Shown here: piece by piece, positions 4,091-48,317 of the stretch
How the letters are laid out: each line of letters starts with the position of its first letter
Position numbering within the stretch: position 1 is the first letter of the stretch
Origin: Marispirochaeta sp.
Lineage (GTDB): Bacteria > Spirochaetota > Spirochaetia > JC444 > Marispirochaetaceae
Reading direction: 5' to 3'
NCBI GenBank assembly: GCA_963676835.2
Contig: CAXXFF010000003.1
Coordinates: 640,001-704,000, forward strand
Length of the DNA: 64,000 bases
Translations under genes and position numbers: made by a program
The notes under the pieces: model-generated
What the model saw: the letters and a program-made list of their open reading frames with translations, nothing else
What the model was told of the DNA's origin: nothing
Databases searched by the model: none

Positions 4091-4118
4091 GCATCCCCGG
4101 GATAGTAGAATTTGACCA

Positions 4119-27704: not shown

Positions 27705-27712
27705 CGGTTACC

Positions 27713-29275: not shown

Positions 29276-29675
29276 ATAGTAGTTTTGCTATTGTGACGAG
29301 AGTGCTCGTGTTAATCGAGGATTTCTTATTTCAGGTTAAAGCAATTCCGGCGCTCCGGAAAAACTGTCCGTTTTCGGCCGGAACAGGTGTCCGTTTTTGC
29401 CCGGAATCACTGTCCGCTTTCCTCCGGAATGGGTGTCCGTTTTCGGCCGGTGTACACAAGGGCGGCTCCGGAAATTTTATCACCGTTAATTATTGTTTCA
29501 AAAGGATAACCTTTTATTCTGCTCGTTACCGGACAGCCGATCATTAGTCCGGTTTTCCGGTTGTATTCAAAAGGAGATAAAACAACCGCAGGCCGTTTAC
29601 CCCCCTGCTCATGTCCGGACTGGGAAGTAAAATTCAACCAAACTATATCACCTTTTTCAGGTATGTAACTTTTTC

Positions 29676-29918
29676 TCACCAGATTTCTTTGCCTTCGGAG
29701 TTTCCCCAATCAAGCTGGCTATGCAGATTCGCTTCGGTAATCTTATCCAGCAGAGAATTGATGTCCCGGTTTCTGTTGGTTTCGATAATAATTTTGTCCT
29801 GGTCCTCTTCTATATTTACAGTGGACCCGTTTTCAAGGGATAAGTTTTTAATCATACTCATTGGAATACGTATTCCCAAGCTGTTGCCCCATTTTTGTAT
29901 CTTTGCTTTCACATTCAT
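29676..29918 (-). CDS. mazE: AbrB/MazE family antitoxin
   Basis: Start re-assigned to ATG 29918: KIQKWGNSLGIRIP...LLDKITEANLH...DWGNSEGKEIW; stop overlaps the mazF GTG; imperfect palindrome GTATATACTTTGTTTATAC just upstream. Confidence 0.92.
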   Translation of the reverse strand: MNVKAKIQKWGNSLGIRIPMSMIKNLSLENGSTVNIEEDQDKIIIETNRNRDINSLLDKITEANLHSQLDWGNSEGKEIW

Positions 29919-29923
29919 AGTAT

Positions 29924-30666
29924 ATACTTTGTTTATACGATATTCAAGAAACAATCCATTCCACCTTATGATTATAAATACACTCAAAGAGTATTCAGTC
30001 TTTTTGTTCCAAAGATTTTACTATGACCGATCACCCATTGGGATTACTAAATTCAAACAAGTATCTTCCCATTTTGAACCAGAATAAACATCAAGGATTG
30101 TAAAACGAATGACTGTTTCACCGTCATCTATTTTCTTCGGCAAACGTATCTCCTGAAACTGCGGTGTATCAGTAAGCACTACCTCGAAATCAATATCATG
30201 TTCTTCAATTTGAATCCGCATTTTTTTTATTCGAGAGTTATATTCATATAAATAAGGTTTTGAAAAATCCACATACCCATTAGAAATCAGCAGAAAATCA
30301 ACCGGCCAGTTCCACGTCACGGTTTCAATTTCGAACCATTCGCCAATACCCTGCCCGTCAATACCTTCTACCCAGGGGATGTTATCAGTAGAGGAAAATT
30401 GAATGGTGTTTTGACCATTGTAATCTTTATTGCCTTCAACCAAGGATGAACTACTACGAACTGAAACAACCCTTGGGTTTGCCCCACTCCATCTCAATCC
30501 CTCATCAGAACTAAACAAGAGAAAATTCTTATCAAATAAAAGTAATTTTCGAGGATGCACAAGCATTCCCAGTTTTTCTTTGTAAGTGTAATTTTTATTG
30601 CTGCTCAGGTATAAGTAATCAAAGTTATATTCTTTTTTTGATTGCCAGGTACCACGTTCGTAATAA
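29924..30666. repeat. Direct repeat copy A (~740 bp): 3' two-thirds of the candidate immunity gene plus downstream DNA
   Basis: Aligns by eye with 34667-35409 at offset 4743, with scattered substitutions. Confidence 0.9.
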
Positions 30667-30944
30667 GAGCTATTTGGAAATACAGAATCAGTCTTAATAG
30701 GCTGAGGTAAACTAAATCTTAAGGACGATTCTTTATTTTGGGCATTATCCAAGCGAAACTCATAAAAAGATCGATCAAACAAAAAATTGCCCATATAACA
30801 TGAGTAACCACTTTGGTCGAGCTTAACATAATCAAATCCTCCAAAGTAGCTTAGACGATTATTTAACTCGATTGGTCCTAAATAATCTTCTGCAAGACAT
30901 ACCAAAACCAAATTCAGTATTATGAAAATTATAACTTTATTCAT
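30021..30944 (-). CDS. Exported NADase-type (discoidin-like) glycan-binding domain protein; candidate immunity protein for the orphan Rhs tip
   Basis: Signal peptide; SSSL..., PWVEGIDGQGIGEW, ISNGY...YNSRIKK, ILDVYSGSKWEDTC; AT-rich; 20 nt after the orphan toxin stop. Confidence 0.75.
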   Translation of the reverse strand: MNKVIIFIILNLVLVCLAEDYLGPIELNNRLSYFGGFDYVKLDQSGYSCYMGNFLFDRSFYEFRLDNAQNKESSLRFSLPQPIKTDSVFPNSSYYERGTWQSKKEYNFDYLYLSSNKNYTYKEKLGMLVHPRKLLLFDKNFLLFSSDEGLRWSGANPRVVSVRSSSSLVEGNKDYNGQNTIQFSSTDNIPWVEGIDGQGIGEWFEIETVTWNWPVDFLLISNGYVDFSKPYLYEYNSRIKKMRIQIEEHDIDFEVVLTDTPQFQEIRLPKKIDDGETVIRFTILDVYSGSKWEDTCLNLVIPMGDRS

Positions 30945-30964
30945 AGCTTCTCCTAATTAAATGA

Positions 30965-32065
30965 TCACCTAGTCCAGTTCTTTGGAGTTTCATAACTAAA
31001 ACCCAATATACTCATGCCAAAACTTTCACCTTGTTTAAAACCAATCCCATCAATCGAATTTCTTAACCTTTCATAATCTTTGTTAGAAAAAATTTGGCAC
31101 CCCCAACTCAGAGCATTAGGCCGCTCTGGAAAATTTTTACTACCAGTTGAATGTATCCAAAAATTCCAAATCTTCTCAATTCCTTTTTTCTCAAGACCAT
31201 GGAGTTGTGCTGTTTCACTTGTTATTGACATAGCGTTCTTATAACTATTGGTTTCTCCGATTAGCTCTACTTGATAATCCTCACCAATAGGAAGTGTTGC
31301 GTTTGGATAATTTACATTACTTAAATCATCATCATGCTTTTCCAATTCAGTTTGATCTCCCGACCTATAATTCTTCTCACTCTGAACACCCGCATATTCC
31401 TGAAGGACTTGGTTCCCTACATACAGTTTTGCACTATCATTCTGATCAACTCGACCTTCACCTCGCTGAATTTCCAGGTGCGTTTCCTGTTTAAGGTCTC
31501 TTCCCTCATAAGCAAGTATTGGGTTGCCATTTACATCATCTGCATAAACCTCTGCCAAACCCGTTGGATCCACATACTTCAAAGGATTATTACTACAATA
31601 CCCATACCAGTTCATCCCATCCATCGCCGGGTCACTCGACATCCACCGCCCCCGCTTCGGATCAAGATACCGCGCTCCGTAATAATACAACCCTGTCTCC
31701 TCATCGTACTCCTTTCCGGTAAACCGAAACGGAATCACATCCGCCAGGGGATCAGTCTGCTCCTCCCACAGCTCTCCATAAGGAGTATACTCCAGGTGTT
31801 CATATTTCTCACCTTCATGGTCCGTAACAAACTGGGCACTACCTAAATGATCAGGGTGATAGTAGTAGGTATTTACCCGCTCATAGTCGAAGTTGGTACC
31901 GGACACATTGTCCTTTTCCAGGCTCAACCGCGTGGCTATCCTACTTTCTCCAAGGTATATATGCTTACTCTGCCGAAAATCAGACCCTTCGATTACCCCC
32001 TGAAAAAACTGGTCAAAGTACAGGGTTTCCTCGCTGGCACTAAGGTTATATTTACTGGTGCGCAT
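30965..32065 (-). CDS. Orphan Rhs core plus variable C-terminal toxin domain (L,D-transpeptidase-like)
   Basis: YYHPDHLGS, PFRFTGKEYDEETGLYYYGARY, NPLKYVDPTGL, near-identical to the giant gene; different tip containing FWIH-x14-SWGC. Confidence 0.88.
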   Translation of the reverse strand: MRTSKYNLSASEETLYFDQFFQGVIEGSDFRQSKHIYLGESRIATRLSLEKDNVSGTNFDYERVNTYYYHPDHLGSAQFVTDHEGEKYEHLEYTPYGELWEEQTDPLADVIPFRFTGKEYDEETGLYYYGARYLDPKRGRWMSSDPAMDGMNWYGYCSNNPLKYVDPTGLAEVYADDVNGNPILAYEGRDLKQETHLEIQRGEGRVDQNDSAKLYVGNQVLQEYAGVQSEKNYRSGDQTELEKHDDDLSNVNYPNATLPIGEDYQVELIGETNSYKNAMSITSETAQLHGLEKKGIEKIWNFWIHSTGSKNFPERPNALSWGCQIFSNKDYERLRNSIDGIGFKQGESFGMSILGFSYETPKNWTR

Positions 32066-32226
32066 ATTATCCGAGTCGTACAGATATTTTACCTGAGTAT
32101 TGGTGGTATCAAAGCCTACAAGGCGGTTTTCTTCATCCCAGGTGTAGGTTCGTAACCGTCAATTAAACCCCACCTTATGCCGACATCAATGAATGCCCTA
32201 CAATCCTCCCTTAATGGAGGAATCGC

Positions 32227-32556
32227 ATGGTCAAATATAACCGGGAACAGCAGTGTGAACATCTTAGAAATTGGGAAAAAAGCGGGTTAAGCGGGCAGGA
32301 GTATTGCCGGCAGCACGAAATACCACCCACAACGTTTTACAGCTGGAAAAAAGCCGAAAGGAAACGTGCCGTACAAACCGGAATAGGCTCTGAAACAGCA
32401 GCAGCCCGGTTCATACCAGTAAAAAGCTCTTTTCATCATTTATCCGAAAAAGAAACCATAACCATAAAGTTGCACGATATTGTTATTACTCTGCCGGTAA
32501 CAGCAAATCATGACCAGCTAAAAGCAGTATTAACAGCCTTGAGGGTTTATGAATGA
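32227..32556 (+). CDS. tnpA: IS66 accessory protein TnpA
   Basis: WEKSGLSGQEYCRQHEIPPTTFYSWKK HTH; FIPV. Confidence 0.88.
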   Translation: MVKYNREQQCEHLRNWEKSGLSGQEYCRQHEIPPTTFYSWKKAERKRAVQTGIGSETAAARFIPVKSSFHHLSEKETITIKLHDIVITLPVTANHDQLKAVLTALRVYE

Positions 32557-32900
32557 CCCCAGATTTATCAGCCGTACAGATATTTATCCGGCCAGGCATC
32601 ACTGATATGCGTAAAGCAATCAACGGCTTAGTTGTCATGGTGCAGGACTATATGAATGAAAATCCGTTAAGCGGCAATCTGTTTCTGTTCTGCAACCGCG
32701 AACGACGAATCATGAAGGCATTGTATTGGGACCGGAATGGTTTCTGCCTGTGGCAGAAGAAACTGGAAAAGCATAAATTCCCCTGGCCCGTAACTGAAGA
32801 AGATGCTCTTGCCATTACCCCGGAACAGCTATCGATGCTGTTGAAAGGCATCGATTTCTGGAATGAACATACTACTTTGGAATATTCCCGTGTTTCTTAA
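32553..32900 (+). CDS. tnpB: IS66 accessory protein TnpB
   Basis: TDMRKAINGL, LFLFCNR, YWDRNGFCLWQKKLE, FPWP. Confidence 0.95.
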   Translation: MTPDLSAVQIFIRPGITDMRKAINGLVVMVQDYMNENPLSGNLFLFCNRERRIMKALYWDRNGFCLWQKKLEKHKFPWPVTEEDALAITPEQLSMLLKGIDFWNEHTTLEYSRVS

Positions 32901-32962
32901 AGCATTTTAATGGTGTAAAGGAATTTACAGAGAAAGAGCTGTATGCTAGAATTTTTTTCAGT

Positions 32963-34492
32963 ATGGATGTTGCAGCCCTTCCGAAGGAAGTACAAGACTA
33001 CATTCACTCTCTTGAGACAGCAAACAGTTCCTGGGAACATCGCTACGGTGCCTTGGAGGAGCAGTACAAGTTGCTTCTTCTTCAGAAATTTGGCCGTAAA
33101 AGTGAAAAAGAACAACAGGATGAGTATCAACCGCTGTTGTTCGGACTTGAAGAGAATGGTACTTCGGAGAACGATGCATCAGAGACTTCCGTACCAGTTC
33201 AGTCCCATCCCCGCAGGAAATCCGGCAGAAAACCAATTGATGAAAGCCTTCCCCGGGAAGAGATCATCATTGATATTCCCGAAGATGAAAAACAGTGTGC
33301 CTGCGGCCATGCGCTGGTTCGTATCGGCGAAGAGACCAGCGAGCGCTTACAGGTAATCCCCCCGAAGATGTGGGTAGAACTGATTATCCGTCCCAAGTAT
33401 GCCTGCAAGAACTGTGAAGGCTCCGGGGATGAAGAGAAGCCGGCAGTAAGGGTTGCTGCCCCCCCTGCAAGTATCATCCCTAAAAGCATTGTAACGCCTG
33501 GATTGCTCTCCTTCATCATAGTGAATAAATTTGTAGATCATCTGCCCTATTACCGGCAGGAGAAACGATTTGAGCGGATCGGCATCCACATAAGCCGTCA
33601 GAACATGAGCAACTGGCAGCAGATGACGTATGAAAAGATTGAACCTTTAATTGAGACTCTGAAAATGCATATCCGGTCAGGGCCGGTCATCAACATGGAT
33701 GAAACCCCGGTCCAGGTACACGGAGAACCGGAACGCCCAGACACGGCGAAATCCTATATGTGGCTTGCCCGCGGCGGCCCTCCGGAAAACCCGGGATTGC
33801 TTTACTCATACCGGGAAACCCGCGGGTCCCGACATATTAAAGAACTTCTCGATGGATTCAGCGGCTTTTTACAGACTGACGGCTATGATGCGTATCGTAC
33901 AGCCCTGGCGGGGAATGAACAGATAGTCCATGTCGGCTGCATGGCCCATGTTCGGCGAAAGTTTCATGAAGCTGCAAAGGCCTCGAAGAAAGCAGCAAGT
34001 GCACAGGAAGCATTGAATGCCATCAGGAAACTGTATGGGATTGAAGAGCGTCTTCGCAGTATGGAATTGCCCGAAGACCAGTTTGTTGACCAGCGCAAAT
34101 CTCAGGCGGAACCGGTTTTGCAGAAGTTTAGAACCTGGCTTGAAAAACGCAGTCAGCAGGTTCCTCCTTCGTTATTGCTTGGGAAAGCAATTCAGTACAC
34201 CTTGAACGAATGGGAGAAACTGGTACACTACCTTGATTCGCCTTATCTGACGCCGGACAACAATAGCGCGGAGCAGGCCATCCGGCCATTTGTGCTGGGC
34301 CGAAAGAACTGGTTATTTTCCGGTAGTCCAAAGGGGGCTGAAAGTTCCTGTGCCATGTATTCACTGATTGAGACAGCCAAACAAAATAATGTGAACCCGA
34401 ACGACTACCTGAGACGCGTTTTTGAGGAAGCTCCACTCATGAATGAATCTGATAACTGGGAAAAATTGCTGCCATGGAATATTTCCCTCTGA
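32963..34492 (+). CDS. tnpC: IS66 transposase TnpC
   Basis: FGRKSEK, Zn finger, HLPYYRQ, MDETP, LQTDGY, CMAHVRRKF, DNNSAEQAIRPFVLGRKNWLF, LLPWN. Confidence 0.96.
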   Translation: MDVAALPKEVQDYIHSLETANSSWEHRYGALEEQYKLLLLQKFGRKSEKEQQDEYQPLLFGLEENGTSENDASETSVPVQSHPRRKSGRKPIDESLPREEIIIDIPEDEKQCACGHALVRIGEETSERLQVIPPKMWVELIIRPKYACKNCEGSGDEEKPAVRVAAPPASIIPKSIVTPGLLSFIIVNKFVDHLPYYRQEKRFERIGIHISRQNMSNWQQMTYEKIEPLIETLKMHIRSGPVINMDETPVQVHGEPERPDTAKSYMWLARGGPPENPGLLYSYRETRGSRHIKELLDGFSGFLQTDGYDAYRTALAGNEQIVHVGCMAHVRRKFHEAAKASKKAASAQEALNAIRKLYGIEERLRSMELPEDQFVDQRKSQAEPVLQKFRTWLEKRSQQVPPSLLLGKAIQYTLNEWEKLVHYLDSPYLTPDNNSAEQAIRPFVLGRKNWLFSGSPKGAESSCAMYSLIETAKQNNVNPNDYLRRVFEEAPLMNESDNWEKLLPWNISL

Positions 34493-34527
34493 TTTTTTTC
34501 TCTGGGTGAGGTTTAATTGACGGTTAC

Positions 34528-34650
34528 GTATCAAAGCCTACAAGGCGGTTTTCCTCATCCCAGGTGTAGGTTCTGCAATAGGTGCTTGCCTGGTCGTCCT
34601 CTTCCGTACGCATAAGGGCAAAACCGCGGTTTACGCTGCGAAGGTCTCCG
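34528..34650 (-). pseudogene. Rhs homology fragment (GDLRSVNRGFALMRTEEDDQASTYCRTYTWDEENRLVGFDT)
   Basis: Matches 37793-37915 of the giant gene with 2 visible substitutions; its first 46 bp also repeat on the other side of IS66. Confidence 0.88.
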
Positions 34651-34666
34651 ATTATTGATAGTTTAA

Positions 34667-35409
34667 ATACTTTGTTCATACGGGGATCAAGGAACAATCC
34701 ATTCCATCTTATGATTATAAATACACTCAAAGTGTATTCAGTCTTTTTGTTAGAAAGATGTTACTATGGCCGATCACCCATTGGTATTACTAAATTCAAA
34801 CAAGTATCTTCCCATTTTGAACCAGGATAAACATCAAGGATGGTAAAACGAATTATTGTTTCACCGTCATCTATTTTCTTCGGCAAACGTATCTCCTGAA
34901 ACTGCGGTGTATTAGTTAGCTCTACTTCGAATTCAATATCATGTTCTTCGATTTCAATCCGCATTTTTTTTATTCGAGAGTTATATTCATATAAATAAGG
35001 TTTTGCAAAATCCACATACCCATTAGAAATCAGCAGAAAATCAACCGGCCAGTTCCACGTCTCGGTTTCAATTTCGAACCATTCGCCAATACCCTGCCCG
35101 TCAATACCTTCTACCCAGGGGATGTTATCGGTTGAAGAAAATTGAACGGTATTTTGACCATTGTATTCTTTAATACCTTCAACAAAGGATGAACTACTAC
35201 GAACTGAAACAACCCTTGGGTTTGCTCCACTCCATCTCAATCCCTCATCAGAACTAAACAAGAGATAGTTTTCATCAAAAAGAAGCAGTTTACGAGGATG
35301 CACAAGCATTCCCAGTTTTTCTTTGTAAGTGTAATTATTATTGCTTCGTAGGTATAAGTAATCAAAGTTATTTTCTTTTTTTGATTGCCAGGTACCATGT
35401 TCATAGTAT
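34667..35409. repeat. Direct repeat copy B (~740 bp)
   Basis: Counterpart of 29924-30666. Confidence 0.9.
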
Positions 35410-35687
35410 TCACTCCCTACTGTAAGTCCACTATCTTTCAATGGATCAGGATACACAAAGAAAGCTGACGGGATGCGCTTCTCAGATAAACCTATCATAT
35501 ACTCGTAAAACTTTATATCAAACAAAAAGTCTCCAATAAAATTGGATGTTCCACCTCCATCAAGAAGAACTCGATCAAATGCGCCAAAAAAACTAATACG
35601 TTTCTCTAATCTTACAGGCTCTATATTGTTTTCTGCGACGAGACTAATTGATAGAGATAGCAAAAAAACAAATAAAATTTTTTTCAT
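34764..35687 (-). CDS. Exported NADase-type glycan-binding domain protein; candidate orphan immunity protein
   Basis: Signal peptide; C-terminal ~210 aa nearly identical to 30021-30944, N-terminal ~95 aa divergent. Confidence 0.75.
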   Translation of the reverse strand: MKKILFVFLLSLSISLVAENNIEPVRLEKRISFFGAFDRVLLDGGGTSNFIGDFLFDIKFYEYMIGLSEKRIPSAFFVYPDPLKDSGLTVGSEYYEHGTWQSKKENNFDYLYLRSNNNYTYKEKLGMLVHPRKLLLFDENYLLFSSDEGLRWSGANPRVVSVRSSSSFVEGIKEYNGQNTVQFSSTDNIPWVEGIDGQGIGEWFEIETETWNWPVDFLLISNGYVDFAKPYLYEYNSRIKKMRIEIEEHDIEFEVELTNTPQFQEIRLPKKIDDGETIIRFTILDVYPGSKWEDTCLNLVIPMGDRP

Positions 35688-35720
35688 TCCATTACCGGCC
35701 CCATCACTTTACAGGAATAA

Positions 35721-36635
35721 TTATTCTCTTTGCGAAAATATACTGGTCAGTCTATTGTATTCATCAGCACCCAACTCATGGTGCTCCTTCAAAGACTGAT
35801 CGTCAAGTTCAGAAAAAATACCAGACACCGCTGTATCGTTATATTTATATCCCGGATAAACTTCTATAATTTTTATTTTTATCTTTTTTACTTCCCGCGG
35901 AAAGTATACTGTATGAAATCTTACTTCATCAATAAAACGATATTCTATAGAAAAATTATCATAGTCATCATTCGAAATGATTTTGATTGTTTTTAGTCTA
36001 TTATTTGCTTTGTACAACGCTCGATTTGATAAATCTATATAACCATTCATAATGGAAATATTTTGATATGATTCATTAAATTCAACGTCAATCTCCTCAC
36101 CAATTCCTGGTCCTTCAACACCTTCAACCCAAGGGTAGGTTGATGAGAATGTTCCCCAAAACGGTTTAGAATTGATATTCCAGAATTCTCCATGATAGCC
36201 CATATCAATAACTACGTGTTTTAAATTTTCACTTTTGTATTGAATTAGATTCCCGTTAATCACTTCTTGAAAAAAACTTGTTGCGGTTATATCGCTTATA
36301 ATCGGTTTTACATTTGTATCTACAATAAGTACATCTTTATAGCCCCTGGGCTTCTCGAGATTATTAAAAAGAACGCTTGATCTATCTCCAAGAATAACGA
36401 TATATGTTCTATCCGAAGTTTTTAGATAACCGTAACCATCTTCTTCATAGCTAATATCTTCTTCATTGAAAGAATAGAAGCAATTACAAGCAGAATCAAA
36501 GATATAGCCTTTCCCTGAATAAAAAGCTATTTTTTTGTCAGGGTTAATCTGATCGATAAAGTTATATTCAAATGGTGTTGAGAAAAGATCTGTAATAACT
36601 ATAAACAATATTAAAATATAAGTATTTCTTGGCAC
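35721..36635 (-). CDS. Exported NADase-type glycan-binding domain protein; candidate cognate immunity protein of the giant toxin
   Basis: Starts 1 nt after the toxin stop; hydrophobic N-terminus; PWVEGVEGPGIGE, IMNGY...ANNRLK, EVYPGYKYNDTA; very AT-rich. Confidence 0.75.
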   Translation of the reverse strand: MPRNTYILILFIVITDLFSTPFEYNFIDQINPDKKIAFYSGKGYIFDSACNCFYSFNEEDISYEEDGYGYLKTSDRTYIVILGDRSSVLFNNLEKPRGYKDVLIVDTNVKPIISDITATSFFQEVINGNLIQYKSENLKHVVIDMGYHGEFWNINSKPFWGTFSSTYPWVEGVEGPGIGEEIDVEFNESYQNISIMNGYIDLSNRALYKANNRLKTIKIISNDDYDNFSIEYRFIDEVRFHTVYFPREVKKIKIKIIEVYPGYKYNDTAVSGIFSELDDQSLKEHHELGADEYNRLTSIFSQRE

Positions 36636-36636
36636 T

Positions 36637-39600
36637 TCAAAACTCCTTTAACAGACCATTTATTATTGTCCCTTCTTGTATCCCCCAAGATTCCATAAAA
36701 TCAATTGAATCGTTGAATTCAGACGATGATGGGATAAAACAGCCATCACTACCTTTATTGTTGTAATCAACTTCTGGATTACCAAGACTCGCATTTCCAT
36801 GATAAAGCCAGCGCCCACCTCTATTTGCACCTCCTCCAACGGCATTCCCGTCACGTCCAATAACTGTGCCATCTATGGTTGATGTATTTTGAATCTCCAG
36901 AACAACTCCAGGAATGGATCCACTTGTTGATTTATACTCCATATCAAATTTACCTGGAGCAATAGTATTACCCTGTAACTGTGAGCCAGATATAGGCTGG
37001 TCTCGATTGCCTTCAGTTTGAATATCTACTGTCTGTAACCCTCCAACAAAATGCTTGCCCTTTTCTCCAAGAATAGTCTCTGCTGAAATGACCAGAAAAT
37101 CTTTCCCTTGGGTATCCAACTCACCATATTTACTTTCATAACTCGATCTACTTCGAAATACCTCTGCAGTGAACTTTGTAGGTTCATATTGTCGGTCGGT
37201 AATAATTTCACCCGTTTTAACATGCTCACCGATAACATCTGCCAACCCCGTAGGATCCACATACTTCAAAGGATTATTACTACAATACCCATACCAGTTC
37301 ATCCCATCCATCGCCGGATCACTCGACATCCATCTCCCCCGCTTCGGATCAAGGTACCTCGCTCCGTAATAATACAGCCCCGTCTCCTCATCATACTCCT
37401 TTCCGGTAAACCGGAACGGAATCACATCCGCTAACGGATCAATCTGTTCCTCCCACAGCTCTCCATAAGGAGTATACTCCAGGTGTTCATATTTCTCACC
37501 TTCATGGTCCGTGACAAACTGGGCACTGCCTAAATGATCAGGGTGGTAATAGTAGGTATTTACCCGCTCATAATCGAAGTTGGTACCGGAAATATTATCC
37601 TTCTCCAGGCTCAACCGCGTGGCAATTCTGCTTTCCCCCAGATAAATATGCTTACTCTGCCGGAAATCTGACCCTTCGGTTACCCCCTGAAAAAACTGGT
37701 CAAAGTACAGGGTTTCCTCGCTGGCACTAAGGTTATATTTGCTGGTACGCATATTATCTGCGTCATACAGATATTTTACCTGGGTGTTGGTGGTATCAAA
37801 GCCTACAAGGCGGTTTTCCTCATCCCAGGTGTAGGTTCTGCAGTAGGTGCTTGCCTGGTCGTCCTCTTCCGTACGCATAAGGGCAAAACCGCGGTTTACG
37901 CTTCGAAGGTCTCCGTCGACGGACAGAGTGGACTCCCCAGCCTCAGCCTCGGCGGAAGGCCCGCCTTTCCGTTCTTCTATAACATTGCCGTTTTTATCGT
38001 AGGAGTAATAAATATTGCCTATCCACTGTACCCGGTGAGGTGTTCCCTCATAGTAGCTGTACTCCTGCTCATAATTGAGGGCACCCTTGGGGGTGGTTGA
38101 AGGAACATAACGCTGGCTGGAGTTTTTCTGCTGAAAGTTCCCCAGGCTGTCATAGACATAGTCCTGACTATAGATACTGGTAGTTACATCAATGCCGTCC
38201 GGATGGTGCCGGTAGGTGCCATCCGCTCCGGTCAGCTGGTTTAAGGCATCGTAACCATAGGTCTGGGTTGTGGTGTAGCCGTACACATCGTTGGTATACC
38301 CGGTTATGTTACCCACCGTATCAAAACTGTAGCTAATGTTCTGGTAGCGCCGGGCTGCCCCTTCCTTCCCGGTTTCTATGCTGTCCAGCCAGCGGCGGTA
38401 GGGGTTGTAGGTGTAATGTGTTTCAACGCTGTTGCCGTACTTCATGTACACCCTCTGGCCGTAGGTGTCGTAGCCGATGTCTTCTATATAGGTAGTAGAC
38501 TGCCCCTTGGTGATTCCGGTGACACTCTGCACCTGACCACCGGTGTTGTAGGTATAGGCAACTGTTTCCCCGTCGGGATAGGTAATCTCTTCCAGCCGGC
38601 CCAGGTAGTCGTATACAAACGAGGTACTGGCCGTTTCCGCATCAAGGGTCTGATCCAGACGATTCAGGGTTCTGATGGTTTCACTTACTTCGCCGAGCTT
38701 TCCGTAGGCATATTCGATGGTCCCCGAAGCATCGCTGCGAGTTATAAGTCTACCCGCAAGGTTATCGGCAGTGTCTACCGGGCTACCGTAGGCGTATTCC
38801 GTTGCGGTTGTTTTCGGGTAATTGACTCTAATTAAGCGGTTCAGTCCATCGTAGTCGTACCGGATGGATCTGCCGGAAGCGCGGAGATTTGAATCGATTT
38901 TTTCCGTCAGGTTGCCTGAATCATCATACCTGAACACAATTTTACCTGCATCATAACTTTCTACACTTGTTCTGCGGCCTGCCAGATCGTACTGGTAAGT
39001 CACAGGGTATGTTAAACCTGTTTCCAGCTGGTGTTCAAGGCTCTGCTGCAGCTCACCCAGGGGTGAGTAGCTGTATTCCGCTTTTTTCAATATTCTGCTG
39101 CCGGAATCGAGCATACGAAGTTCCGCAACCTGCCCCCGGATGTTTTTCAGGGTTTCCGTTCTGTTCTGCTTCGGATCGATGGTCAGTTCCCGCATCGTAT
39201 TACCTTCAATGCCATATTCCATCTGCATTTCTGCATCGTCATCGGGATCTTTAGGATCATCGGGGAATACAATATGCTTTACCCTGTCCAGGGGGTCGTA
39301 GGTTTTTATGGTAGGAAGAGACAAGCCCGCCAGGGCCGGCAGAACCGTGTTAAGCCCGCCGGAGACAGGCTGGCTGTCTGCTGTTTCCAAAAACACCGTC
39401 TGTCCTTCCTGGACAGTCCGGCCTGCACCGTCCTGTGCAATCAGCCCGGAACAGTTCCAGCCGTAGAGAGTATCATTTCCATCCCTCACCTCACCCTCTT
39501 TGGCTGTCTGAATAATCCGGCCCAGTCCGTCCGCAAAGGTAGCGGTGAGCATATCCTCACTGGAGGCAGTATCGTGGCTGATTTTGTTTACCGTTACTGC

Positions 39601-42600
39601 AGTCCATGGGAAACTCTCCGTTCGGTACTGAAAGGCAACAGCAGGCATGTCGCCGCTGTCCGGTTCATAGGGGCTTCTTACCCGGGCCATACGGCCGAAG
39701 CTGTCATACTCCCGGTACTGGCTGTTCAGGTTCTGGTCGGTAAGCTGCAGTTCTTTGCCGTATTTATAGTCCCACTGCATGCTGGTGGAATAGCTTGGCG
39801 TACCGGAAATAATAGAGTTGCCCGTACCAATAGTAAGCGGGAATGTATGCACACTGCTGTCGTAAACAACAGCAGTTTCACAACCCCGGGGATCAATAAC
39901 GGAAGTCAGGTTGCCAAACCCGTCATACGCAAGGGTATGCAGGGTATAGTCATCCCTGGTGTAGTACTGTTCAAGCTGCCTGAGGTTTCCGGTATCAGCG
40001 AAATACCGCCCTATGCGCTTGCGCAGGAGATTATCTTCGGCATCATACACAAGAATGGTTTCCGGGTGGGCATGCATATAGGCGTCTGCATCGAGATCGG
40101 CATAGGTAATTTCTGCCCGCATGTCATCCTCGGGGTCGCCCACAAGGCCTGCATCGGTAAGCTCCCGGACATTACCGTAGGAATCATACAGAGTATATTC
40201 CATCAGCTTATCCAGCCTGGCGCCGGTTTCCTGGTCGAAAACGGTTTCCGTTTCACTCTCCAGCCGGGGAATAACGCTGCCGGAGGCAAAGGGAATATAG
40301 CTGTAGGTCATGGAGCTTTCACTGTATTCCTGTGCCGCCGGATCGAGAGGATGCACGTCGTAGACGGCCCGTTTGATCAGCAGCCCCCGGCGGAAAAAGT
40401 TATCGTCATAGGCAGGATCAACCGCATAGGTGTCCTCCTGTACCGAAGCAATGGCGGTGTTTGCAGGAACCTCGGAATCGTAGTTTTCATAGCGCAGGGT
40501 TCTGACGGTGGTAAAGCCGCAGAACATCCGTTCCGTTCTATCGTATACACCCTGTTCAAACTCAAAACCCGTAACAAACTCATGGGCTCCGGGACGTTCA
40601 GTATCGCCTTCAATGCCGTCCTTCATGGTGATTGTTTCAGGGACCCATCTGCTCTGGGGCATTTCCACGGTGTTACCCACTCGTTTGTAGCTCAGCTCGG
40701 TGCTGCCGCCGAAGGGGGTATGGATGGTTTTCAGCAGGCCAACCGTGCCGAGGGCGGATTCCATTACCCGGATTCTGTTTTCTCCAGGTACCCGTAAAAC
40801 ATGGTCGGGAAGCCCGTCGCCGGTAATATCCTGAAACTTTAAACTTGTAGATGTATGTACATACGAACCACTTATTCCCGGAGTCATTTCAAACAGGATT
40901 AACCACAACACAGGGATTTGAAATGTTACCGTACCGTTTACCCCGAGGGAAAGACCGGCGGAATATTCCAGCGTATCATCAACATTAAAGGGATTCAAAC
41001 CGGCACCAAACTTATCTATAAAATCAAGTCCCCCAAGATCTATAGAGAAATCAGGAAGAGCTGATATATCGATGCCTGTAAAATTTCTTACCGCGGAAGT
41101 TATTTCATTACAAATTGATGCGGTCATCATTCCTGCAAAATTTATACCAGACCAATCGGGCCTATAAATTTTAACCGGTTCTTCCGCGAAAGTATCGCCT
41201 AAATTGAAGCAGACCTCAAAGAATCCTTCATCAGGCATTTTTGCCACCTGGTCAGGTAAGCCGTCTCCATTCATGTCCAGCATACGATAAATAGTTCGAT
41301 TCACAGAACCAGTTTCACTCCCGCTTGCGCCGAAACCGATAGCACCGGCAGTTACGCCGGTTGATACCGATCCACCGAAACTACCTGCATTGCTGTATTC
41401 AATTCCTTCTGACTCTTGCTGGCTTTCGAATATTTCGGGCAACAAAACTTTATATAGCCCCCCATTCCATTGAGTTTGTGGATCGAAACCGTTTCCGGTA
41501 TTCAGGGCAACTGAAGAGGACCCGCTGCCAGTACGCTCCAACTGGTCCGGCAAACCATCTCCATTGATATCCCTGAAACCGATGTTCTGGATATTAGACG
41601 AGGTAGTGCCGTTTATGCTTACACTTGCACCGGAAGAACCATCCGTAGCAGTTATCTGGTTGGATTCAACCTTTCCATCCTTATAAGTCTGCATAATCCC
41701 GCCAATAACCGCCATGGGGGAAGAACCGAAGCCGTAACATTCATTGCTGCTTTTTGTCATATAATTGAGTCTGGCTGACAACCCCGTTTCGTTCTGCAGT
41801 GTAAACGTATTATCTGATGCTATGCTTCCATACTGCACCGTAACAGAAGTACCGCCATCTGAAGGGAACTGGACTACATCCGGATACCGATCGCCGTTGA
41901 TATCTATAAAATCCTTGTACATCCATGAATTACCGGTATTCCTGCTTCCACCGATAAGATTCATAAACGCGCTGAGATTGATATCAACGTTGTCATTCTT
42001 GCTTTTTCTCAAATCGCCCAGCTGTCCCTGACCACATAATGTAGAGCTTGTAGGTGCTGAATAATAGAGGTCACCACCTAAACGTGCCGGGTGATACCTG
42101 TCTTCCTGCAAATAGGGAGCAAACGTATATTCATTAAATACCATTGTGCCTGTTTCATCCCATTCAGCTTCAGAATAGGAAGAATTGCTGCCAATCCAGG
42201 CGTTTTCAGGTACAAGTTCCTTGTATACGCGCCCGTCCTCAGTAATTTTATAGGAATCATCCTCCTCGCTATAGTTAGGTGACATCGCTAAAAACCAGGG
42301 TGGATCAACAGGATCACTGCTCTGCAATACCTCAAGGGAAGGAACCTCTCCGTTGCCCTCTTCATATTCGGGTACTTCTACAAGCTTCTCGGCATCCCAG
42401 TCGTAATACCCGGTCCAGACTCCGTAAAACCAGCCATGAACTCCACCGGCAAAAGATTCTCGGCTGTAAGATTTTTTGGACAGATTATTAAGATAATCAC
42501 CCTCCGATGAAGAAGGCAGGCTTTCAGGAAATTTTGCAAGGATAAGATTATCCAGAGCGGAATAATCGATAAGGTTTAGATCCGAGTAATCGGAGAGAGA

Positions 42601-45600
42601 ATCAGCCTGACGGAAAAGAACTTTTTTATTTATCGATATACCTTCACTGTCAAATACCGGCAAGCGGCAGCTGCCTGCAGAAACATCTGTAACAGTTGTA
42701 TCCGAATTTTCCGGTGAGAAACTCGTTAGCGCTGTTTCACTCACCAATCCTTCGTCGGTGACTTCAAAATCACCATTGGCATTATAGATAATTCCCCTCT
42801 CAAGCTCAGTCCAGGTCCGGATGCCAAGATCCGATAAAGATGAAATAACAACTGCAGTATCCTCAGGCTTATCAAGAATGTCCTTTATCACATAGTTACT
42901 GTCGTCATCAGAGTAGAATGGAAAAACCTCATCCATCGCACGGTAACGGCCGCATGCTAAAGTGAATAATGCCGTTTGATCAACGTTAAAATTTTGCTGC
43001 AGTGAATACCAGTTATTTAAATCTGAATCTAAGTACTCTACAAATAATTCAGTAATATCATTACGTATCCCTGCATCCTGAGAAGCCAGGAAAATTGCAA
43101 ATTCATCTTCACTTAACAGAATAATTCCCTGTATGCCGGGGTCAATAGTATCAAGGATTGAATCCGGAATATCATGAAGAGCATCAGTTTGCTGTAGATA
43201 TATAAGCAGGCCGCTTTCAAACCCCGGGCCTTTCGGCATATAAGTATCCAAAAACTCATCATATTCAAAAGAATCTGTCATAGAGAGAAGATCAGCCTCG
43301 CTTAGCCCAGAAGAGGCTGCCAGCCAGTCAGTGCTGCTTACGGGAAAAAGAGAGGAAACCCCATACTGCTCCCCGGAAATTACAGAAGGGATAACAGTCT
43401 CTTCGAACAACGCCTCCGGTATCGATTGAAGCAAGGAAGTCTCACCTTCCAAATTAAAAAATCGCGTAATACCATCTTCAACAACTTCACAATGAAACCC
43501 ATCACCTGTTTCGGAGACTGTTCCGGCAGGTGTTGTACCTGATTCATCATGCTTAAGAATTTGTGGTTCTGCTCCTGCATTTAAAATGTATGAATAGGAT
43601 GGATTTTGAGTATCTTCCTCCAGAAAAACCTGGTCCAGTAGAAAACTACCATTTTCAATTAACACCTTTTCACTGCCATTCCAGTCAGCCTCAAGTCGAA
43701 TTTCCGGAGAAAGATCCTCGTCAGTAACCGTAGCAGTAAGCAGACGAAACTCACCGGTAGAATCCGGATAGCCCTGAGGCAAATCTTCTGCATCCGGGTA
43801 CACCAGCGATCGTAAGGCATCCATACCGATAAGTGATCGCCACGGATCATCATATTTACGAATAACTGCAAGTCCGGCTGAATCTGTACAATAATAGACC
43901 TTCTCTTCCGGAGAATAGGTAAAAGAATAAAAAAGTGTATAACGATCAGACGCAGAAATCTGGTGAGTAAAGCCAACGGGAGTAATATTGTAGTCAGGTG
44001 AGACTAAATTAAGCAGAGGTTCAAACATGACTGCAGGAACTCTGGTAAAGTTAAGGTAACAATTTCTTATTAACACATCCTGCAGAGTGGGATTGGCTTC
44101 TACAAGTGCTTTCCAGTTAGAACGACGGTTATAAACCCTGACATTCTGCTCATCGATTTGTTCAAAGGTGGAGGTGTAGAGGGGATCAAATCCCGAATCA
44201 CCATCAGGTAGGCTTCTGTAAGTCTTTAATGGAATGTCCACAAACGTGCTGAGGTCCTCCATTGATTCCAGCAATTTGATAGAGGAGTAGTGAATAGTGG
44301 AGTTCCATAAAACATCATCTCCTCTCGGATCTCCTTTTGTATCAAGATGAAAATATATTGGCTCTCCTTTATTAATATGAACATTTTCAATCTCCAGAGG
44401 GTTTGTACTTACTCCACCTGGCAAAATATCACTGGCAGCTTCTATCCCTCCCGGCGCCCGCACTACAGCAACAGCATCACAATAACTGCTGAACCCGGTT
44501 TCCACAGGAGTAAATGAATTGGACACATTAACGGTTCCGGACCTGTAGGCCTTCCATTTTCTGACTGGCTCCTGAATAAAATAGCCTTTCTCCAGGCTGG
44601 CGCCTTGCTTGCTCGAAACCTCGGCTATTTCACTGCTGTCAGAAGGAGTTTCGATTATCTTTGAAATAAATCCTTTACCCTCATTATTCAGATAATATCC
44701 GTCAAAATCGGTGGCTGCAAAATCTACAAAACCATCTCCATTCAGATCAGAAAAACTGCTTCTTGTTTTTGATTGCCCCCACTGCCAGGTAGTCGATCCG
44801 CTTAAAGGAATAACTCCAGCGGAAAGTCCGAAATTGTATGATGAAGATCGGACCTCATTAACATTTCGCGACAGAGAACCAAAATCTATAGCCTTAGCTC
44901 CAGTGTTGAAAACACCTTCATCCTGAGGGAAACACACCGCATCCTTTCCTCTGGACAATACGACATCTGACAAACCATCTCCGGTTAAGTCCATAAGTGA
45001 CAACTCAGTTCTGGCTTTGGAAGTATTTGCATCGGCACGTAATCCAAAATGGGCATACCGTTCCCACTTAAGGCCGCCAAAGAAATCAATTTTGGGCCCA
45101 TACAGACCAATCCCCGTGTACAGGCTTACACCTACTCCGGAAGTCCGGTCTTCCTGCAGAGCTGGCACTTTGGCAGGATCTTCAAGCACAATGGACCGCT
45201 CCCCTTCCCCGAAACCTTTATACCCGTCACCCTGAACCTCCGGCTCATAGTAATCAAAGCGGTAGCAGTAAAACTCACTGCCGGAGCCGTCGCTTTCGGA
45301 AAGCTCCGCCAACTGGGTCTGGCCGAAAATATTCTGTCCATAGGTAAAATCATAACGCCGGAACATGAGACCGTCATAAGAAACCTCAACACCTTGTAAC
45401 AGGCGGGTCAGCTTGGAGACAAACTTGCCCCGGGCATCGCTGCGACGGTCCGGCCTGGCTTCGGGAGAAGAGTCCATGTCAAAATGAATACGGTAGAGCC
45501 CGGTCGAGCCGTCTCCGGTATGGCCGGAATAACGGATATCGGAAAGATACGCTGTCTTGTTTGCAAGGTCTTTATCGTAGGAATAATCCGCCGTATTACC

Positions 45601-46707
45601 GTTGGAATCAATAATCCTGCTCAAATACCAGTGGTAGATTCTGCTGCGGTCACCCGCATCCGGACCCGTCCAGCCGTCGCCGGTGCCGTAGATACGCTTC
45701 GTTCCGCCCTTGTCGGTAACCTCCCAGCGGCGGTCATCATTCACATACCAGAGTATCCGCTCAAAGCTCCCCTCTTTCCGCCGGATGTACTTCATGGCAC
45801 CGTCTTCCATTTCGCCGCTGAAGAGCAGCTCCTCTCCGTTCAACAGAAAAGTATCTTCCGTATCGTAATCGGGAAGGCCGAAACGGGTATCGATGGAAAC
45901 CGACGGTACACTTATGTCAAAGCCCCGGCCCATCCAGCTGTTCTGCTGTTCCGATGAGTAGGAAACAGACAGCTGAGGCGTTGCGGAACCCCGCCCTTTG
46001 GGAATGCGTAAAGGCAGTGAAAAGCCTGCGCCCCCCATGGTGTCCGCCTTAAGGCCCTGCACCCGGGGAACCTCCGCCGTTGGGTCGGCTGCTTTGAGGT
46101 CTTTTATACTGTTGACATTAAACTCCACCGCCTGAGGCCCTTCCGGCAAAGTCAGGGTGGAGGTAATCATATCGGTAAAATGGGTGGTAAGGCTGGTAAT
46201 AACTGCGGCATCATGGTCGATACCGTAACGTTCAAGCTTGTTCCATTTTCCCGGAGCCTCATCATAATACCAAGTGTAAAGATTGGAGAGAGCTGTTTCC
46301 GAAGCAAGTATCTGCCTGTCGAAGGGAAGGGAGACTTTAACCGCCCGGGAAAAGGTCTGTCCGTCGGGGAGAAAACGGTATCCTGCCGCCCCGGAGGTTA
46401 CATTGGCCATACCGCTGTTAAGCCGGGCAATATTGCTAAGCTTTTCTACGGTAATGACGGTAGTTTTGCTTACTGCCCCGGAGGGGACCTCCATGGAGAC
46501 CTCGGGCGAGCGGAACACTCCTCCTTCCCCGGGAGTAACGGTAAACTCGGCAATAACCTCATTGCCCGGTTCCTCACTCACCTGTACCGCCGGCGTGGTT
46601 GGAGAGAGAGAAACCTCTCCGGGTTGGGCGAAAACAGGGGGAGCAACGGAGCTCAAAAAGAACAGCTCCAGAAGGAAAAAGCTTATTAGCCGGTTTCTTA
46701 TATTCAT
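36637..46707 (-). CDS. Giant TcB/TcC-like SpvB-FG-GAP-TcdB_midN-Rhs polymorphic toxin with Sec signal peptide and ZU5-like N-terminal domain
   Basis: Signal ending PPVFA|Q; SpvB motif GGAGFSLPL...PQLSVSYSS...WMGRGFD; six DxxGD(G/R)xxD repeats; GLLKTIHTPFGGSTELSY; many YD repeats; Rhs core ending DPTGL; ~200-aa AT-rich tip. Confidence 0.92.
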   Translation of the reverse strand: MNIRNRLISFFLLELFFLSSVAPPVFAQPGEVSLSPTTPAVQVSEEPGNEVIAEFTVTPGEGGVFRSPEVSMEVPSGAVSKTTVITVEKLSNIARLNSGMANVTSGAAGYRFLPDGQTFSRAVKVSLPFDRQILASETALSNLYTWYYDEAPGKWNKLERYGIDHDAAVITSLTTHFTDMITSTLTLPEGPQAVEFNVNSIKDLKAADPTAEVPRVQGLKADTMGGAGFSLPLRIPKGRGSATPQLSVSYSSEQQNSWMGRGFDISVPSVSIDTRFGLPDYDTEDTFLLNGEELLFSGEMEDGAMKYIRRKEGSFERILWYVNDDRRWEVTDKGGTKRIYGTGDGWTGPDAGDRSRIYHWYLSRIIDSNGNTADYSYDKDLANKTAYLSDIRYSGHTGDGSTGLYRIHFDMDSSPEARPDRRSDARGKFVSKLTRLLQGVEVSYDGLMFRRYDFTYGQNIFGQTQLAELSESDGSGSEFYCYRFDYYEPEVQGDGYKGFGEGERSIVLEDPAKVPALQEDRTSGVGVSLYTGIGLYGPKIDFFGGLKWERYAHFGLRADANTSKARTELSLMDLTGDGLSDVVLSRGKDAVCFPQDEGVFNTGAKAIDFGSLSRNVNEVRSSSYNFGLSAGVIPLSGSTTWQWGQSKTRSSFSDLNGDGFVDFAATDFDGYYLNNEGKGFISKIIETPSDSSEIAEVSSKQGASLEKGYFIQEPVRKWKAYRSGTVNVSNSFTPVETGFSSYCDAVAVVRAPGGIEAASDILPGGVSTNPLEIENVHINKGEPIYFHLDTKGDPRGDDVLWNSTIHYSSIKLLESMEDLSTFVDIPLKTYRSLPDGDSGFDPLYTSTFEQIDEQNVRVYNRRSNWKALVEANPTLQDVLIRNCYLNFTRVPAVMFEPLLNLVSPDYNITPVGFTHQISASDRYTLFYSFTYSPEEKVYYCTDSAGLAVIRKYDDPWRSLIGMDALRSLVYPDAEDLPQGYPDSTGEFRLLTATVTDEDLSPEIRLEADWNGSEKVLIENGSFLLDQVFLEEDTQNPSYSYILNAGAEPQILKHDESGTTPAGTVSETGDGFHCEVVEDGITRFFNLEGETSLLQSIPEALFEETVIPSVISGEQYGVSSLFPVSSTDWLAASSGLSEADLLSMTDSFEYDEFLDTYMPKGPGFESGLLIYLQQTDALHDIPDSILDTIDPGIQGIILLSEDEFAIFLASQDAGIRNDITELFVEYLDSDLNNWYSLQQNFNVDQTALFTLACGRYRAMDEVFPFYSDDDSNYVIKDILDKPEDTAVVISSLSDLGIRTWTELERGIIYNANGDFEVTDEGLVSETALTSFSPENSDTTVTDVSAGSCRLPVFDSEGISINKKVLFRQADSLSDYSDLNLIDYSALDNLILAKFPESLPSSSEGDYLNNLSKKSYSRESFAGGVHGWFYGVWTGYYDWDAEKLVEVPEYEEGNGEVPSLEVLQSSDPVDPPWFLAMSPNYSEEDDSYKITEDGRVYKELVPENAWIGSNSSYSEAEWDETGTMVFNEYTFAPYLQEDRYHPARLGGDLYYSAPTSSTLCGQGQLGDLRKSKNDNVDINLSAFMNLIGGSRNTGNSWMYKDFIDINGDRYPDVVQFPSDGGTSVTVQYGSIASDNTFTLQNETGLSARLNYMTKSSNECYGFGSSPMAVIGGIMQTYKDGKVESNQITATDGSSGASVSINGTTSSNIQNIGFRDINGDGLPDQLERTGSGSSSVALNTGNGFDPQTQWNGGLYKVLLPEIFESQQESEGIEYSNAGSFGGSVSTGVTAGAIGFGASGSETGSVNRTIYRMLDMNGDGLPDQVAKMPDEGFFEVCFNLGDTFAEEPVKIYRPDWSGINFAGMMTASICNEITSAVRNFTGIDISALPDFSIDLGGLDFIDKFGAGLNPFNVDDTLEYSAGLSLGVNGTVTFQIPVLWLILFEMTPGISGSYVHTSTSLKFQDITGDGLPDHVLRVPGENRIRVMESALGTVGLLKTIHTPFGGSTELSYKRVGNTVEMPQSRWVPETITMKDGIEGDTERPGAHEFVTGFEFEQGVYDRTERMFCGFTTVRTLRYENYDSEVPANTAIASVQEDTYAVDPAYDDNFFRRGLLIKRAVYDVHPLDPAAQEYSESSMTYSYIPFASGSVIPRLESETETVFDQETGARLDKLMEYTLYDSYGNVRELTDAGLVGDPEDDMRAEITYADLDADAYMHAHPETILVYDAEDNLLRKRIGRYFADTGNLRQLEQYYTRDDYTLHTLAYDGFGNLTSVIDPRGCETAVVYDSSVHTFPLTIGTGNSIISGTPSYSTSMQWDYKYGKELQLTDQNLNSQYREYDSFGRMARVRSPYEPDSGDMPAVAFQYRTESFPWTAVTVNKISHDTASSEDMLTATFADGLGRIIQTAKEGEVRDGNDTLYGWNCSGLIAQDGAGRTVQEGQTVFLETADSQPVSGGLNTVLPALAGLSLPTIKTYDPLDRVKHIVFPDDPKDPDDDAEMQMEYGIEGNTMRELTIDPKQNRTETLKNIRGQVAELRMLDSGSRILKKAEYSYSPLGELQQSLEHQLETGLTYPVTYQYDLAGRRTSVESYDAGKIVFRYDDSGNLTEKIDSNLRASGRSIRYDYDGLNRLIRVNYPKTTATEYAYGSPVDTADNLAGRLITRSDASGTIEYAYGKLGEVSETIRTLNRLDQTLDAETASTSFVYDYLGRLEEITYPDGETVAYTYNTGGQVQSVTGITKGQSTTYIEDIGYDTYGQRVYMKYGNSVETHYTYNPYRRWLDSIETGKEGAARRYQNISYSFDTVGNITGYTNDVYGYTTTQTYGYDALNQLTGADGTYRHHPDGIDVTTSIYSQDYVYDSLGNFQQKNSSQRYVPSTTPKGALNYEQEYSYYEGTPHRVQWIGNIYYSYDKNGNVIEERKGGPSAEAEAGESTLSVDGDLRSVNRGFALMRTEEDDQASTYCRTYTWDEENRLVGFDTTNTQVKYLYDADNMRTSKYNLSASEETLYFDQFFQGVTEGSDFRQSKHIYLGESRIATRLSLEKDNISGTNFDYERVNTYYYHPDHLGSAQFVTDHEGEKYEHLEYTPYGELWEEQIDPLADVIPFRFTGKEYDEETGLYYYGARYLDPKRGRWMSSDPAMDGMNWYGYCSNNPLKYVDPTGLADVIGEHVKTGEIITDRQYEPTKFTAEVFRSRSSYESKYGELDTQGKDFLVISAETILGEKGKHFVGGLQTVDIQTEGNRDQPISGSQLQGNTIAPGKFDMEYKSTSGSIPGVVLEIQNTSTIDGTVIGRDGNAVGGGANRGGRWLYHGNASLGNPEVDYNNKGSDGCFIPSSSEFNDSIDFMESWGIQEGTIINGLLKEF

Positions 46708-47428: not shown

Positions 47429-47429
47429 A

Positions 47430-48251: not shown

Positions 48252-48317
48252 TTTTGCTCCTGTTTTTTTGTTTTCTTTTTTCTATTCATCTCTTCATTTC
48301 TACTTTTACCAGATTCT

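Follow-up and report, generated by a model that had tools for sequence, protein, structure and literature searches.

The window considered here, a 64,000-nucleotide (nt) stretch of the Marispirochaeta sp. assembly GCA_963676835.2 (contig CAXXFF010000003.1, positions 640,001 to 704,000 of the forward strand), contains a locus in which two C-terminal toxin domains (tips) of Rhs polymorphic toxins, tip1 and tip2, are accompanied by three genes, imm1, imm2 and imm3, whose products carry the discoidin-like domain PF25302. An initial annotation, made from the sequence, had proposed that these genes represent a new periplasmic immunity family for L,D-transpeptidase-like toxins. The central features of the locus, with lengths in amino acids (aa) or base pairs (bp), are as follows.

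36637..46707, minus strand: full-length Rhs polymorphic toxin, 3,356 aa, with a signal-peptide-like start, SpvB, FG-GAP, TcdB_midN, RHS repeats and Rhs core
36637..37242, minus strand: tip1, 201 aa, modelled L,D-transpeptidase (YkuD) fold, His148/Ser165/Cys168
35721..36635, minus strand: imm1, 304 aa, GTG start, signal-peptide-like start, small beta-rich N-terminal part, C-terminal PF25302
34764..35687, minus strand: imm2, 307 aa, orphan paralogue of imm3
34654..35408: 755-bp repeat, copy 1, covering the 3' part of the imm gene and the next ~110 bp; identity to copy 2 is 92%
34528..34650, minus strand: upstream piece of an orphan Rhs cassette, a core fragment 98% identical to 37793-37915
32152..34527, plus strand: IS66 element interrupting the orphan Rhs cassette
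30965..32151, minus strand: downstream piece of the orphan Rhs cassette, core (open reading frame, ORF, from 32065) and tip2
31555-30965, minus strand: tip2, 196 aa, His135/Ser150/Cys153
30021..30944, minus strand: imm3, 307 aa, PF25302
29913..30665: 755-bp repeat, copy 2

The arrangement of these genes agrees with that annotation, since imm1 and imm3 lie on the minus strand 1 nt and 20 nt behind the stops of tip1 and tip2, respectively, and imm2, the copy said to have no toxin directly upstream, follows imm1 after 33 nt with no toxin between them. The description of AT-rich genes encoding proteins of ~305 aa with signal-peptide-like starts was also borne out: the products are 304, 307 and 307 aa long, the guanine-plus-cytosine content is 0.315 for imm1, 0.361 for imm2 and 0.355 for imm3 (Rhs core 0.486; contigs 0.47-0.49), and each protein has a single N-terminal hydrophobic stretch (best 11-residue hydropathy 2.9-3.4, remainder <=1.5), the signal-peptide call being made with a simple hydropathy heuristic and no dedicated predictor. 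The quoted motifs (the PWVEG, NGY and VY-x-G sets) are present in all three proteins. Each of the three exceeds the curated cut-offs of PF25302 in Pfam (68-79 bits, cut-off 27) and of NF047619 in NCBIfam (92-99 bits, cut-off 38), and PF25302 is the sole family that these two collections place in any of them; Pfam scans gave no match to Imm16 or Imm57 at expectation values (E) up to 0.1, and none to DUF2195. The imm2 and imm3 proteins share 74.5% identity, with 39% in residues 21-95 and 91% elsewhere, and imm1 is 26-28% identical to either. Because imm2 and imm3 are paralogues within the 755-bp, 92%-identical repeat, the number of independent immunity types in the window is two rather than three, and three independent recruitments are ruled out. 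The N-terminal part of imm2 resembles that of a protein from genome G332 more fully than does that of imm3. Among named records, those closest to the imm3 type come from Spirochaetaceae, Spirochaetes and Treponema, in keeping with a spirochaete host.

Structural modelling places the conserved part of imm1 on a lectin-type fold. The imm1 model (predicted local distance difference test, pLDDT, 78) has a confident C-terminal domain, which matches the CBM32 domain 2j1a (Z 11.1, root-mean-square deviation (rmsd) 3.0, 132 residues aligned) as well as other discoidin folds; the N-terminal part is small and beta-rich in the model, and fold searches barely covered it. The suggested resemblance to the translocation domain of streptococcal NAD-glycohydrolase was recovered when the PF25302 family profile matched 7ji1 (E 1.2e-6). 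The imm proteins are without the NAD-glycohydrolase catalytic domain, so identity as an NADase toxin is ruled out.

On the toxin side, tip1 is modelled with an L,D-transpeptidase fold that retains the conserved His, Ser and Cys, in line with the toxin class originally named. A full HMMER scan with tip1 gave 54 matches, and in an alignment of 43 of these with tip1 (11 repetitive or short matches were excluded) His148 and Cys168 are present in 44/44 rows and Ser165 in 41; the His and Cys are likewise invariant in all 47 rows of a second tip alignment. The top 20 structural matches of the tip1 model (pLDDT 92, 47 rows) are all of the L,D-transpeptidase fold, led by Csd6 (Z 10.7, rmsd 3.2, 125 aligned) and including Pgp2 (Z 10.5) and, at rank 18, Tlde1a (Z 6.8, rmsd 3.2, 114 aligned), while the next unrelated row has Z 3.7; Foldseek agrees, its first six rows being of this fold. 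No significant BLASTP alignment joins tip1 and tip2, and a word-index search with tip2 among longer proteins returned only itself, yet tip2 fits the tip1-family profile (E 2e-8) with its His and SxGC in register, a profile match that suggests membership of the same family. Most L,D-peptidase-type tips score below the Pfam YkuD cut-off or not at all, and there was no match of the tip profile to Protein Data Bank (PDB) sequences or of tip1 to phage records. Membership in Tlde1, which an atlas search offered as a lead only (0.81), is ruled out: PF10908 (Tlde1) matched neither tip at E up to 0.1 nor any of 58 neighbours and homologues at 0.05, and VipB (PF05943), the one type VI secretion system (T6SS) sheath marker sought, was not found in this genome (G000, 97% complete). 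When tip1 and imm1 were modelled as a complex, from alignments of 47 and 23 rows, the score was 0.01 (mark 0.32), which is uninformative on binding either way.

The pairing of such tips with PF25302 is real and recurrent. An Rhs-core search of 251 genomes, in which cassettes were chosen regardless of PF25302, was used to retrieve the best 150 of 278 matches, 148 of them outside this genome, and yielded 130 scorable cassettes, from which 12 with <1.1 kb of flank were set aside (11 with other tips and one with a transpeptidase-like tip, whose next gene encodes a complete non-PF25302 protein). Among the matches listed, PF25302 lies directly behind 4/7 transpeptidase-like Rhs tips and 0/111 other Rhs tips (Fisher p 4.6e-6, a value in which kin are not independent); one of the three transpeptidase-like tips lacking it is followed by a transposase and then by a PF25302 remnant. 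M23, NlpC/P60, TseH or amidase domains occur in 9 of 122 distinct other tips listed, and PF25302 follows 0/9 of these predicted cell-wall hydrolases (one with only 608 bp of flank). These counts rule out a general Rhs accessory (0/111) and a general partner of all cell-wall toxins (0/9). The domain itself is present in 97/251 sampled genomes of the class. From the tip side, a search blind to PF25302 found 11 tip1 homologues in 300 other genomes, and PF25302 lies behind 4/5 of those borne on carriers or cassettes and 0/6 stand-alone copies.

A third approach started from the domain, and combined the best 150 of 187 PF25302 matches with the tip-search loci and this genome; 155 genes were scored, and removal of two truncated duplicates left 153. 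Among these, a transpeptidase-like C-terminus immediately precedes 30 genes, which come from 26 genomes; the label was given to 22 by profile and to 8 by a motif only (the motif background is 12/2,831 ORFs of this genome), and all 75 genes tested from the domain profile pass the Pfam check for PF25302. The domain is C-terminal in all 30 tip-linked proteins, 29 of which have a hydrophobic start, and 0/58 listed proteins with an N-terminal domain are tip-linked. Because the tip alignments A2 and A3 varied too much for a pattern scan, both scans of sequence collections were run with the imm3-type alignment; of the 101 domain-bearing ORFs recovered, 14 lie behind transpeptidase-like tips, several being earlier loci or near-copies, and the pairing appeared in none of the named non-spirochaete records. 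Poly-immunity loci were also observed, with arrays of 3-4 PF25302 genes interleaved with tip fragments in L127 (G326:C4), L203 (G158:C11) and L233 (G385:C44).

Immunity subtype tracks tip subtype. By script label, 10 of the 13 best matches of imm1 sit directly behind transpeptidase-like tips and one more (G330) behind a frameshifted tip, and the two best matches of imm3 outside its own genome sit behind the two best relatives of tip2. A Mantel comparison of tips with immunity proteins gave rho 0.44 (p 2e-4, 26 pairs), and the rank correlation for the tip1 pair gave rho 0.65. In a quick tree of the 153 domains, drawn from its midpoint and unrooted, a single branch of 70 rows, with a Shimodaira-Hasegawa-like approximate likelihood ratio (SH-aLRT) of 90, holds all 34 tip-linked domains (four of them hand-labelled in addition to the 30).

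Several observations weigh against this pairing or its specificity. By the script rule, 123/153 listed PF25302 genes are not directly behind a transpeptidase-like tip; three of the six PF25302 genes in this genome have no toxin upstream, and none of the three found in addition to imm1-imm3 lies behind an Rhs tip. The rank correlation for the tip2 pair is non-significant (rho 0.14, p 0.51), and inheritance of cassettes as a block may give part of the co-variation. In a search with the tip alignment (best 30 of 46 matches), PF25302 follows 16/25 carrier or cassette tips and 0/4 stand-alone tips outside this genome, a partly circular count; among the eight carrier-borne tips new to the analysis, which lay outside the training alignment and were not reached via the domain search, only two have PF25302 behind them (26.2 and 27.3 bits, cut-off 27), one of these genes being truncated and just below the cut-off, and of the remaining tips one is followed by an N-terminal remnant and five by neither. 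Unrelated partners also occur, namely a 136-aa secreted protein behind two Rhs tips (L156:1146-1559, L192) and a 330-aa lipoprotein-like protein (L405:448-1437, L411:426-1427), both without a Pfam match. Finally, four PF25302 genes follow C39-like tips: in G158, two lie behind Peptidase_C39_2 tips (E 9.5e-24 and 1.3e-18) on a separate, distant branch of the tree, and in G048/G172, where the C39-like call is an atlas lead only, the proteins are near-identical to PF25302 proteins that stand behind transpeptidase-like tips in G021/G091. The G048/G172 array holds two small genes that are possible true partners of its C39-like tip.

Other members of the domain family were seen in different settings. 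At L202:1021-2998 and 3582-5251 (G158) and at L298:1083-2857, C39-like tips precede proteins with PF25302 near the N-terminus that belong to a separate branch; the L298 upstream protein has no Pfam match. A group of 244-aa proteins with N-terminal PF25302 and host base composition (L015, L002, L003, L005 and kin) occupies one gene neighbourhood kept across the genus, with no toxin link.

The relatives of tip1 are similarly varied. Stand-alone homologues of 175-225 aa (L021:1294-1854, L025:1492-2019, L026:1249-1839, L028:510-1040, L029:1159-1836 and L407:951-1490) belong to phrog_26752, to which no function is assigned and which tip1 itself matches at E 6.8e-11. They sit in prophage-like cassettes, with a Mu-like late transcriptional activator and small membrane-protein genes as neighbours, and are candidate L,D-transpeptidase-fold endolysins of spirochaete Mu-like prophages; PF25302 is behind none of the six. 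A further stand-alone homologue (L023:1222-1893) comes from G108, a very small spirochaete genome of 1.1 Mb, where it follows an FtsK-like gene and no sign of a phage or immunity setting was seen. Six proteins of 2,866-3,899 aa (P0010, P0011, P0014, P0016, P0017 and P0031) have no Pfam family and a tip1-like domain at the end, and from their sequences would represent an unnamed non-Rhs type of toxin carrier.

The remaining features of the locus concern its borders and history.

29407..29987, minus strand: mazE plus a 5' fragment of mazF that stops at IS21; lower border of the locus
46757..50733, minus strand: four genes 5' of the Rhs gene, encoding a tetratricopeptide repeat (TPR) protein, a 347-aa protein and two lipoprotein-like ORFs

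In the carrier, SpvB, TcdB_toxin_midN and RHS_repeat exceed their Pfam cut-offs and the Rhs core is NCBIfam TIGR03696; ZU5 has no Pfam or NCBIfam match there, although residues ~50-190 may be ZU5-like. Two unlike tips sit on 99%-identical Rhs cores, and same-genus genomes bear other tips. The 755-bp repeat and the duplicated core would be explained by single-crossover gain of one cassette, with the other pushed downstream. The IS66 copy at 32152-34527 has no 8-bp target duplication, which 5/8 other full copies in the genome have, and 46 bp of Rhs core flank it on either side, which suggests recombination of two IS copies that removed or joined cassettes. Contigs from one run, which may be that of the source sample, span the tip1-imm1-imm2 and tip2-imm3 junctions with no differences, and no RNA record was listed for this stretch. 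IS21 cuts mazF and leaves mazE intact (26964-29987), and Rhs cassettes of the same genus also precede toxin-antitoxin pairs. Homologues of the 347-aa gene, which matches no Pfam or NCBIfam family, lie 11-14 kb before an Rhs core at 5/6 places in same-genus genomes, and the four genes at 46757-50733 may together serve in the export or display of spirochaete Rhs proteins.

Taken with the anatomy of the locus, the model folds, the conserved catalytic residues and the selective recurrence described above, these considerations lead us to regard it as likely that a subfamily of the PF25302 discoidin domain provides periplasmic immunity to L,D-peptidase polymorphic toxins, with neutralisation as the predicted activity. 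The Rhs carrier would be exported via its signal peptide and the tip released from the Rhs shell, a release that is established for Rhs proteins. The tip would then act as a thiol peptidase that attacks the peptidoglycan stem peptides of neighbouring cells. The imm protein is pictured as secreted and made of two parts, the PF25302 discoidin and a small, variable beta domain, and would reside in the periplasm; its position, recurrence and co-variation suggest that it neutralises its own tip, most likely by binding. Thus, imm1 is the predicted cognate immunity of tip1 and imm3 that of tip2, imm2 may be an orphan retained against a tip2-like toxin of relatives, and the immunity role would be limited to one PF25302 subfamily. 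The initial annotation had named a lack of enrichment of this domain behind toxin tips among the results that would count against its proposal, and the domain proved to be enriched there (4/7 versus 0/111, with 0/9 other predicted wall-hydrolase tips); what it called a new immunity family is supported for one subfamily, with a link that is not obligatory and tips that are not Tlde1 by profile.

The same evidence bears on other roles for the domain. If it bound peptidoglycan or mimicked a stem peptide, it might shield the wall from several cysteine peptidases and so confer class-wide protection, as the CBM32-like fold of imm1 (Z 11.1), the occurrence of PF25302 behind C39-like tips (in G158, and in G048/G172 as an atlas lead only) and the 91% identity of the domain between imm2 and imm3 while their N-terminal parts diverge would allow; the tracking of tip subtype by immunity subtype, the absence of PF25302 behind the nine Rhs tips that bear a predicted wall-hydrolase domain (M23, NlpC/P60, TseH or amidase), and the presence of two small genes in the G048/G172 array with which the C39-like tip may really be paired make this unlikely. 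We consider it improbable that the domain is instead a targeting partner, which binds a target-cell surface glycan and helps to deliver or position the released tip in the manner of streptococcal NADase: a delivery helper would be expected to go with the carrier and not with the tip, yet none of the 111 other tips on like carriers has one, orphan copies and arrays are a common feature of immunity genes, and neither tip is followed by another gene that might confer immunity. In its favour are the sequence homology with 7ji1 (E 1.2e-6), the streptococcal translocation domain thought to contact the host surface according to the available part of PMC5596348, and a delivery route left open by the failure to find a T6SS sheath gene in this genome.

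A non-toxin role has very little probability in our assessment, whether the tip were a wall-remodelling or anchoring transpeptidase with its substrate or regulator downstream, or the domain one that collects in mobile AT-rich islands. The top structural matches of tip1 are indeed Csd6 and Pgp2, which are the cell's own shape enzymes, many PF25302 genes lie in ordinary neighbourhoods, and several homologues of the tips form the ends of proteins of 2,800-3,900 aa in which Pfam recognises no family. The tips, however, come after the Rhs core, at a variable site that in relatives holds M23 and other domains; island clustering fails to explain 0/111; and stand-alone homologues in prophage-like cassettes beside a Mu-like late activator and small membrane genes suit a lytic enzyme. 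Periplasmic immunity by one PF25302 subfamily is therefore the reading that we retain. A tentative and rather doubtful extension of it is that PF25302 became an inhibitor scaffold on two or more separate occasions, its targets being cysteine-dependent peptidoglycan peptidases with unrelated folds, L,D-transpeptidase in one case and C39-like in the other, and its ligand-binding face serving as a stem-peptide mimic or wall shield. Such a scaffold would be a natural protein inhibitor able to work on a wider range of L,D-transpeptidases, and the streptococcal translocation domain would derive from an interbacterial conflict module.

If immunity by this subfamily is correct, it would constitute a new immunity family on a lectin-type fold, PF25302 would flag L,D-peptidase toxins missed so far, and the system would offer a first handle on cell-wall warfare among spirochaetes, for which literature searches found no dedicated study. 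Free PF25302 proteins have a name borrowed from the streptococcal toxin and no function that was found in print. L,D-transpeptidases are linked to beta-lactam tolerance, and a protein that blocks their active site would be a useful probe of this enzyme class. The locus, with two tips and three proteins, is a ready-made specificity test.

Comparison with known systems helps to define what is new. L,D-peptidase toxins borne on RHS proteins were predicted in 2012, with Imm16 (DUF2750) and Imm57 as partners and ZU5 as a carrier-associated domain for Tox-LD-peptidase (Zhang et al., 2012; PMC3482391); in the available part of that paper, spirochaetes are not among the hosts given for Tox-LD-peptidase, and discoidin domains appear only as adhesion modules inside toxins. 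The present tips resemble Tox-LD-peptidase as described there in being predicted L,D-peptidases with His, Ser and Cys at an RHS C-terminus, on TcdB/TcaC-type carriers and with linked immunity genes, whereas the partner in this locus is a separate PF25302 protein and not Imm16 or Imm57. The toxin class has been known since 2012, and a PF25302-type immunity family on a lectin-type fold is apparently undescribed, a judgement on which the supplementary neighbourhood tables of Zhang et al. (2012) may bear; no paper was found that links a PF25302 or discoidin protein to toxin immunity in the accessible text of a literature with few subscription journals covered, and the available part of PMC12994826 contains no mention of discoidin.

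Within the accessible portions of the reports on Tlde1/Tldi1 (Tae5/Tai5; DUF2778/DUF2195), immunity is provided by DUF2195, and the immunity proteins of two sister families of Tlde1 are unannotated (bioRxiv 10.1101/2020.02.18.954545, 10.1101/2022.08.05.502956). As far as those portions go, the likeness extends to an L,D-transpeptidase fold with His and Cys, periplasmic action (predicted here), immunity proteins with signal peptides, orphan immunity genes and the fusion of some Tlde1 members to Rhs; the differences are that the present tips lack PF10908, that the genome lacks a VipB match, and that the immunity proteins are of ~300 aa with a discoidin domain as opposed to the 138-aa DUF2195. 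The L,D-carboxypeptidases Csd6 and Pgp2 provide the closest solved folds to tip1, at 12-13% identity and with no sequence-profile match. Streptococcal NAD-glycohydrolase (PF25302, NF047619, PDB 7ji1) carries a homologous discoidin/F5-8 type C domain fused in front of its catalytic domain, in contrast to the imm domain, which has no NADase catalytic domain and stands as a free secreted protein behind the toxin.

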